A stretch of 13,321 bases of DNA, from assembly GCA_020697515.1 (NCBI GenBank), contig JAIXNB010000009.1, positions 1 through 13,321 of the forward strand, given 5' to 3'. Made by a program: the position numbers and the translations under genes. This stretch comes from Nanobdellota archaeon (GTDB lineage: Archaea > Nanobdellota > Nanobdellia > Nanobdellales > Nanobdellaceae). The notes under the pieces are model-generated. The model was not told where the DNA came from. It saw only the letters and a program-made list of their open reading frames with translations, and did not search any database. This document shows, in pieces, positions 1,050 through 3,051 of the stretch (position 1 is its first letter; each line of letters begins with the position of its first letter).

Positions 1050-1060
1050 TTTTAAATTTT
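1050..1060 (+). promoter_or_regulatory. TATA-like box for the H/ACA-containing transcript
   Basis: TTTAAATTTT is centred about 26 nt upstream of 1081, the first base of the GC-rich hairpin. This is the typical archaeal TATA-to-TSS spacing. Confidence 0.5.
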
Positions 1061-1080
1061 AATTGGCTATTTCATTCTAT

Positions 1081-1134
1081 CCCCGCCGGCCATGCACTGG
1101 GGAGTCATGAACCAGTTCCTCCAGGCGGGGAACA
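1081..1134 (+). ncRNA. H/ACA box guide sRNA hairpin (pseudouridylation guide), predicted target in 16S rRNA
   Basis: Lower stem CCCCGCC (1081-1087) pairs with GGCGGGG (1124-1130). Upper stem ACTGG (1096-1100) pairs with CCAGT (1112-1116). The K-loop-type cap GGAGTCATGAA has the form N-GA-N5-GA-N. ACA at 1132-1134 lies 15 nt after the upper stem. Pocket strands are GGCCATG and CCTCC. The region is a GC-rich island in an AT-rich spacer. Confidence 0.7.
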
Positions 1135-1136
1135 AT

Positions 1137-1211
1137 GGGATGAAGATGGTGGCATGATCCTGAGATGTGAGGAAGGAGGTGAGTGCAGATGATGAGATAC
1201 GGCTACGCAGA
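1137..1211 (+). ncRNA. Non-canonical C/D-box-like guide RNA unit(s) with alternating C-like and D-like boxes; structure unresolved
   Basis: Layout: GGGATGA (1137-1143) -16 nt- CTGA (1160-1163) -3 nt- GTGAGGA (1167-1173) -12 nt- CAGA (1186-1189) -0 nt- TGATGA (1190-1195) -12 nt- CAGA (1208-1211). The region is purine- and GC-rich and is contiguous with the H/ACA hairpin. Confidence 0.4.
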
Positions 1212-1219
1212 CCTACAAA

Positions 1220-1224
1220 TTTTT
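1220..1224 (+). terminator. Oligo-T (T5) archaeal termination signal after the GC-rich RNA region
   Basis: TTTTT lies immediately after ACCTACAAA, at the point where GC content drops back to background. Confidence 0.4.
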
Positions 1225-1293
1225 AAACAAAAGTACTATACATAAACAACCTAAAACTCAGAATACACAGCTTAAACAACAATAATTTAGATA

Positions 1294-2979: not shown

Positions 2980-3051
2980 AGCCGCCGCCGGGATTTGAAC
3001 CCGGGACCTCCGCCTTACCAGGGCGGCGCTCTACCGCTGAGCTACGGCGGC
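2980..3051 (-). tRNA. tRNA-Thr: tRNA-Thr (anticodon GGU)
   Basis: The reverse complement folds as GCCGCCG-TA-GCTC-AGCGGTA-GAGC-G-CCGCC-CTGGTAA-GGCGG-AGGTC-CCGGG-TTCAAAT-CCCGG-CGGCGGC-T. This is a perfect cloverleaf with anticodon GGT and discriminator U. No CCA and no intron. Confidence 0.95.

Follow-up and report, generated by a model that had tools for sequence, protein, structure and literature searches.

In archaeal reconstitutions of box H/ACA particles, Cbf5, Nop10 and a guide RNA suffice for activity, which is further stimulated by L7Ae and Gar1. Guides of this class from Pyrococcus and from N. equitans are the closest points of reference for the locus analysed here.

Pab21/Pf1 (Rfam family RF00065, snoR9) is a composite RNA of Pyrococcus, and forms with and without its C/D part occur in vivo (PMC2377435). 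Pab19 of P. abyssi (Pfu19/Pho19) targets 16S U1017, the equivalent of E. coli U1052, and is strongly active in vitro on a 16S sequence identical to the one discussed below; in the same study, a reverse-transcriptase pause prevented confirmation of the pseudouridine at this Pyrococcus site in vivo (PMC2377435). For N. equitans, Randau (2012; PMC3491384) tabulated a single H/ACA RNA, located at 339 kb, and described a TTTAAA box A that precedes the starts of nanoarchaeal sRNAs and tRNAs by 26 nt. The structural rules set out for such guides include a lower stem of 7-9 bp, an ANA box that follows the pocket-closing pair at a distance of 14-16 nt, and a GA stem of 10 layers, which is argued to be necessary for productive complexes, any deviation being reported as deleterious (PMC4652768). 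The 10-layer rule is a proposed determinant of activity and lies outside the definition of the H/ACA family.

The window, that is, the whole stretch of 13,321 nucleotides that was analysed, is contig C22 of a 469-kb assembly of a Nanobdellota archaeon, and a first-pass annotation had placed in it an H/ACA hairpin aimed at 16S rRNA. This claim is supported by a unique target, by covariation, by the presence of protein genes and by the published target of Pab19. It is highly likely that window positions 1080-1134 encode a single-hairpin archaeal box H/ACA guide for 16S U1015 (E. coli U1052), and the hairpin is very probably a new member of the well-known archaeal H/ACA guide class that forms the 5' half of a composite gene.

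Results

Locus and predicted fold

The assembly consists of 55 contigs, is 76% complete and has a GC content of 32%, against which the hairpin region stands out as an island of 67% GC. This region lies in a 463-nt gap without an open reading frame of at least 60 aa, and the gene upstream of the hairpin lies on the opposite strand. The window opens with a tRNA truncated at its 5' end (1-63), adjoined by a gene for a 278-aa tyrosine recombinase (XerA-like, Phage_integrase family; 104-940), and a tRNA with the anticodon GGU (Thr) is located at 2980-3051 on the minus strand. A canonical C/D box sRNA (GUGAUGA ... CUGA ... AUGAUGA ... CUGA) lies at about 1290-1343 and is overlapped by an Rfam C/D match below threshold (1315-1375).

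At gathering thresholds, the only Rfam matches in the window are two tRNAs. Of the expectation that Rfam models would recognise the hairpin, the part that held concerns the identity of its best match under relaxed settings, which is the Pyrococcus composite snoR9/Pab21 (RF00065; 25.0 bits, model positions 1-71 of 128); this score is far under the cut-off of 90 bits, and membership of RF00065, or of any other Rfam family, was therefore rejected.

Table 1. Predicted features of the composite locus in window coordinates
Feature	Position	Strand	Remarks
Box A-like TTTAAA, candidate promoter element	1051-1056	+	about 24-29 nt upstream of the hairpin 5' end; from sequence
Lower stem, 5' strand	1080-1087	+	U1080 and CCCCGCC (1081-1087); pairs with 1124-1131
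Pocket, 5' strand	1088-1095	+	GGCCAUG (1088-1094), complementary to CAUGGCC at own 16S 1017-1023; unpaired C1095
Upper stem, 5' strand	1096-1100	+	ACUGG; pairs with 1112-1116
K-loop cap	1101-1111	+	11 nt, G-GA-GUCAU-GA-A, GGAGUCAUGAA; GA at 1102-1103 and 1109-1110
Upper stem, 3' strand	1112-1116	+	CCAGU; pairs with 1096-1100; from sequence, fold and alignment
Pocket, 3' strand	1117-1123	+	U-CCUCC-A; CCUCC (1118-1122) complementary to GGAGG at own 16S 1010-1014
Lower stem, 3' strand	1124-1131	+	GGCGGGG (1124-1130) and A1131; pairs with 1080-1087; pairs vary jointly in relatives
ACA box (ANA)	1132-1134	+	15 nt (1117-1131) past the upper stem; predicted anchor for the Cbf5 PUA domain
C/D box methylation guide, three guide segments	1140-1211	+	sub-threshold Rfam C/D matches; pairing with own 16S
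Guide 1 unit	1140-1163	+	C box AUGAAGA 1140-1146, guide 1147-1159, D' box CUGA 1160-1163
Guide 2 unit	1167-1189	+	C' box GUGAGGA 1167-1173, guide 1174-1185, CAGA 1186-1189
Guide 3 unit	1189-1211	+	AUGAUGA 1189-1195, guide 1196-1207, CAGA 1208-1211
T-run, candidate terminator	1221-1225	+	T-runs follow the D box in homologs too

Every base and coordinate that the first-pass annotation had given for the stems, the pocket strands, the cap, the ACA box and the spacing was borne out by the sequence (Table 1). The lower stem comprises 7 bp, or 8 bp if U1080-A1131, a covarying pair, is included, and this length as well as the distance to the ANA box fall within the ranges given above. The cap is predicted to be an L7Ae site, in which tandem sheared G.A pairs would be joined by a third G.A pair. 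The box A-like element would serve as the promoter of the hairpin unit; TTTAAA or TTTTAAA is found at a comparable distance before most of the homologs and before the N. equitans copy.

Both stems were recovered in the minimum-free-energy and in the centroid fold (ViennaRNA). The fold z-score is -1.17, i.e., the energy is not unusual for the composition, and a descriptor for K-loop H/ACA hairpins has one match in the genome, the hairpin itself, compared with 0-4 matches per locally shuffled genome. The shape of the hairpin by itself is thus within chance expectation and, because neither fold energy nor descriptor separates it from chance, it was not counted as evidence.

The GA stem is composed of five Watson-Crick pairs, G1101.A1111 and two sheared G.A pairs, and its 8 layers lie within the range of 8-11 bp (Muller 2008); the count is 9 if the C1095.U1117 apposition stacks. 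All Nanopusillaceae copies share this count of 8 layers (9 if the C.U apposition is included), and the 10 layers of the productive-fold rule are thus reached neither here nor in any of them. A refold with 10 layers, in which G1094-C1118 pairs over the C.U mismatch, was rejected as it would give a target spacer of 4 nt and a distance of 13 nt to the ACA. A reading of the minus strand was also rejected: it scores 10-24 bits with the covariance model described below, versus 77-95 bits for the plus strand, and has no GA motifs or ANA box.

The predicted 16S rRNA target

The context GGAGG-U-G-CAUGGCC, which the first-pass annotation had given for archaeal 16S rRNA, proved correct for this genome. 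A search of the 469-kb assembly with GGAGG-NN-CATGGCC and up to one mismatch returned a single occurrence, GGAGG-TG-CATGGCC at C38:1567-1580, which sits in the single 16S rRNA gene (C38:558-2076). The pocket arms thus have an exact two-arm site with a 2-nt gap beginning with U in the organism's own 16S: 5 + 7 Watson-Crick pairs flank an unpaired U-G (5'-UN-3') in the orientation that an H/ACA pocket requires. The target U is position 1015 of this 16S, and its equivalent in an alignment with E. coli rrsH is U1052 of helix 34, in the A-site region, with G1053 and C1054 as the next two bases.

When the 12 arm bases were shuffled at matched composition, 15 of 200,000 pockets matched the 16S equally well (about 7.5e-5). 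A search of the whole 469-kb assembly revealed no 23S rRNA gene, and the 3.6-kb contig with the 16S rRNA gene (C38) has no 23S adjoining it; the 23S rRNAs of three relatives were used in place of the missing own 23S. In a pairing scan that tolerated G-U pairs and mismatches, the next-best site of the whole assembly scored 10.5 of 12, and those of the three 23S rRNAs scored 9-9.5; all of these carry mismatches within an arm, in contrast to 12 of 12 for the 16S site, and no mismatch-free alternative was present in either set.

Each of the 14 relatives whose 16S is assembled keeps the target, in the form GGAGG-UG-CAUGGC(C/U). The seventh target pair, made by G1088, is specific to the lineage of the window; in relatives, a U at this position pairs with the opposite base, which results in a longer lower stem and a 6+5 pocket.

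Conservation and covariation

BLAST identified homologs at 75-85% identity in 13 relatives, and alignment A2 comprises 14 loci, of which 8 are distinct. In A2, standard pairs occupy 100% of the cells in 13 pairs, compared with 23-62% with slid partners, and pairing of the lower stem amounts to 98.6-100% of cells across the alignments of the relatives. Double-sided changes occur at three lower-stem pairs (C-G to U-A, G-C to A-U, U-A to A-U), and the covariation score of A2 was reached by no shuffle. The addition of Nanobdella revealed a fourth compensated pair, so that four of the eight lower-stem pairs exhibit the compensatory changes that had been expected at homologous loci. The upper-stem pair 1099/1113 is G-C here and G-U or A-U in relatives; the copies in G004, G007 and G012 read ACUAG/CUAGU, i.e., a change from G-C to A-U, and the G004 copy has a further lower-stem variant, CCCCACA/UGUGGGG.

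Pocket and K-loop are nearly fixed. The sequence GCCAUGC of the pocket 5' arm is invariant in A2 and has one substitution each in Nanobdella and G012, and UUCCUC on the 3' side is nearly invariant (UACCUC in G007). In the K-loop, GGGGA and AUGAA hardly change, in contrast to the cap centre, which differs in both sequence and length among the copies (G-GA-N4-6-U-GA-A). One-base departures in the pocket arms or the K-loop motifs are limited to DS8, Nanobdella, G012 and G007. In the ANA box (alignment column 59, window position 1133, for the middle base), the first and third A are invariant, and the middle base differs by genus: ACA is shared by the genus of the window and three others, whereas Nanopusillus and Nanobsidianus have AGA and Nanobdella has AUA. 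A fixed pocket and fixed K-loop ends around a variable cap centre are the pattern that would be expected of a guide pocket and an L7Ae-binding K-loop.

The copies of Nanobdella aerobiophila (L064:2772-2838) and of Nanopusillus DS.bin.8 (L018/L053) have CCUCA in place of CCUCC, and the former also has UGGCAUG, which generates a G.G mismatch with the target. The guide arms are thereby weakened, but the 16S targets of both organisms are unchanged; in these lineages, the guide may be under less constraint or in decay.

Distribution and the N. equitans counterpart

Exact-motif matches occur in Nanopusillus acidilobi, Nanobsidianus stetteri, Nanoclepta minutus, Nanobdella aerobiophila and metagenome-assembled genomes of Nanopusillaceae, by which the organism of the window is classed as a nanoarchaeon of the Nanopusillaceae type. 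With a covariance model built from alignment A4, the hairpin was found in 17 of the 18 genomes of the family, at 77-95 bits, and also in the sister family; the one family genome that lacks a match is 69% complete. About 108 genomes from other families of the class yielded one marginal match only. A literature search for a link between Nanopusillus and pseudouridine guides returned nothing relevant, and the paper collection that it covered contains no report of an H/ACA RNA for Nanopusillaceae.

A weaker match to the covariance model is present in N. equitans Kin4-M (G020) at C1:427,536-427,605 (L081:237-306, plus strand). The identity of this genome is supported by its sequence at 339,411, the first bases of which agree with those of the H/ACA sRNA that Randau (2012) placed at this coordinate. 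This hairpin is standalone, without a C/D unit, and starts 28 nt after a tRNA-Arg(CCU), with a TTTTTAAA box in between. Its pocket arms, UGCCAUG and CCUCC, are as in the window hairpin, its K-loop reads U-GA...U-GA-A, and the upper stem of 7 bp results in 10 GA-stem layers; the ACA follows at 14 nt, and the fold z-score is -4.2. The hairpin is absent from the table of Randau (2012) and is probably a second, apparently unreported, H/ACA RNA of N. equitans. The 159-nt N. equitans H/ACA sRNA at 339 kb has no BLAST match in the genome of the window, and the true N. equitans counterpart of the window hairpin is the hairpin at 427,536-427,605, which is different from the 339-kb locus.

One further genome (G019) contains, next to a Nanopusillaceae-type copy, two additional hairpins at L082:178-243 and L083:163-224, both on the minus strand. 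One of them is a second copy of the guide in which the upper stem has 8 bp (10 layers), one arm reads UGCCGUG and the ACA is immediately followed by a C box; the third hairpin of this genome has an H/ACA-type K-loop and a different pocket, CGCCG/UCCUG.

The fused C/D unit

The composite setting of the hairpin is an addition to the first-pass annotation. A C box starts 5 nt past the ACA, and every Nanopusillaceae copy of the hairpin is likewise succeeded by a C/D unit. The unit of the window has three guide segments compared with two in relatives, and two of its D-type boxes are CAGA instead of CUGA. Guide 1 forms 11 contiguous base pairs with the own 16S at 1396-1406, and its target by the N+5 rule would be the equivalent of E. 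coli A1408. It differs from the guide of relatives at two positions, each of which is matched by a change in the respective 16S, i.e., guide and target covary. Guide 3 forms 9 bp with 16S 1484-1492, in the region before helix 45. The T-run at the 3' end is likely to be an archaeal terminator of a composite transcript, and the hairpin is best described as the 5' half of a composite H/ACA-C/D gene.

Protein machinery

The first-pass annotation had tied a functional guide to the presence of Cbf5, Nop10, Gar1 and L7Ae genes. Three of these were found: the genome encodes a Cbf5 of 345 aa with DKCLD, TruB_N, TruB_C_2 and PUA domains, as well as Nop10 and L7Ae. For Gar1, the Pfam model returned no match in the genome of the window, which is 76% complete, or in any of 21 further Nanoarchaeia, complete genomes included; this model misses the Sulfolobus control, too.

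Discussion

The mechanism that we propose follows that known for the family. By analogy, the locus would be transcribed as one unit that leads from the box-A promoter through the H/ACA module at the 5' end into a three-guide C/D RNA, the latter also being directed at the 3' domain of the 16S rRNA; the H/ACA and C/D halves might later be separated. The hairpin would assemble with Cbf5, Nop10 and L7Ae, L7Ae being bound to the apical K-loop and the PUA domain of Cbf5 to the lower stem and the ACA box. Both strands of the internal loop would then pair with the 16S, one on either side of the U-G dinucleotide (CCUCC with GGAGG, GGCCAUG with CAUGGCC), which would place U1015 in the active site of Cbf5, where it would be isomerised to pseudouridine.

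It should be asked whether the same observations could be produced by something other than a functional 16S guide. We give almost no credence to the idea that the hairpin is a chance GC-rich structure or another element without guide function, for example, a terminator of the upstream gene: the unremarkable z-score and a descriptor that yields about one match by chance would be compatible with this, but they are countered by the covariation, the order-wide conservation, the unique complementarity to rRNA, the conservation of K-loop and ANA box and the promoter-like box upstream, and the version with a terminator is at odds with the orientation of the upstream gene, which is on the opposite strand. 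Also highly improbable is a functional guide whose real substrate is another RNA (23S rRNA, tRNA or mRNA), the 16S match being incidental. The organism's own 23S is missing from the assembly, and some archaeal pockets guide several sites (PMC2377435), both of which leave room for such a substrate; nevertheless, the best alternatives in the genome and in the 23S of the relatives fall well short of the complete match to the 16S, the probability of which is very low in shuffled pockets, the site is kept in every relative with an assembled 16S, and the same site is a published H/ACA target.

It is improbable, too, that the hairpin is a former guide that has lost catalysis and persists as a 5' module that binds L7Ae and Cbf5 and stabilises or assembles the C/D RNA, or as a folding chaperone for helix 34. 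Several observations would fit such a role, namely a GA stem of 8-9 layers where 10 are reported as needed (PMC4652768), the failure to detect Gar1 in 22 Nanoarchaeia genomes with a Pfam model that also misses Sulfolobus, the constant fusion to a C/D unit in Nanopusillaceae, and the mismatched arms in Nanobdella and DS8. However, the pocket arms hardly differ between genera, a constancy that would be needless for a stabilising hairpin, the ANA box and its 15-nt spacing have been retained, and no C/D unit accompanies the N. equitans ortholog. Furthermore, Pab19, first drawn with a GA stem of 8 bp, is active in vitro, and GA stems of 8-9 bp have been reported in Haloferax guides (PMC4652768).

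A catalytically active guide for 16S U1015, our preferred reading, would add a well-supported H/ACA guide for Nanopusillaceae. On the strength of this predicted guide, genomes of about 0.5 Mb would retain RNA-guided pseudouridylation of helix 34 in the 16S A-site. With their conserved short GA stem and the class-wide failure to detect Gar1, these organisms offer natural tests of the 10-layer rule and of whether Gar1 is required. It is possible, if doubtful, that the composite RNA acts as one bifunctional RNP, in which one pocket for pseudouridylation and three guides for 2'-O-methylation would all be aimed at the small-subunit decoding centre (U1052 in helix 34, the surroundings of A1408 in helix 44, and the region of helix 45). 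Such an RNP would be a modification and folding hub in 30S assembly of a minimal-genome symbiont, working with a GA stem 1-2 layers under 10 and possibly without Gar1, and, if this were true, the structural rules currently applied to productive H/ACA RNPs of archaea would have to be revised.

Comparison with described guide RNAs

The 159-nt H/ACA sRNA of N. equitans (339,411-339,574; PMC3491384) shares with the window hairpin the order, the protein machinery and the style of the box-A promoter, but it is a double hairpin with K-turn bulges and has other predicted targets, 16S U234/U796 and 23S U614.

Pab19 is directed at the same uridine as the window hairpin, and the target string of Pab19/Pfu19/Pho19, GAGAGGAGGUGCAUGGCCGCC (GAGAGGAGG-U-GCAUGGCCGCC), is identical (PMC4652768 supplement). 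The two guides also have in common the CCUCC 3' arm, an L7Ae motif with three stacked G.A pairs (GGGGGA...AUGAACC in Pab19), the ANA box and a short GA stem, which in Pab19 was 8 bp as originally drawn. The resemblance beyond the target, seen by eye in the CCUCC arm and the GGGGA...AUGAACC motif, may stem from orthology or from convergence. Pab19 differs in that a true K-turn, on which an additional stem-loop sits, takes the place of the K-loop; its 5' guide strand is very long (15 nt) and extends the pairing downstream, the target spacer proposed for it is 3 nt, it possesses a further stem-loop at the 5' end, and a fused C/D unit is lacking, whereas the window hairpin has a compact 7+5 pocket and the canonical 2-nt spacer. 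That Pyrococcus Pab19 uses the same site suggests an important role, and possibly an ancient origin, of this modification among thermophilic archaea.

In architecture, the counterpart of the window locus is Pab21, in which a 5' single K-loop H/ACA hairpin likewise runs directly into a C/D guide, with the C box within a few nucleotides of the ACA. The K-loops are nearly identical (GGGGAAuCGUGAACC against GGGGAGUCAUGAACC), and GGGGA...UGAACC is present in the snoR9 consensus. Pab21 has another pocket and another target, 16S U891, and the three-guide C/D RNA is a feature of the window. The tight fusion of the hairpin to a multi-guide C/D RNA indicates that the composite architecture of the Pab21 type reaches beyond the Thermococcales.
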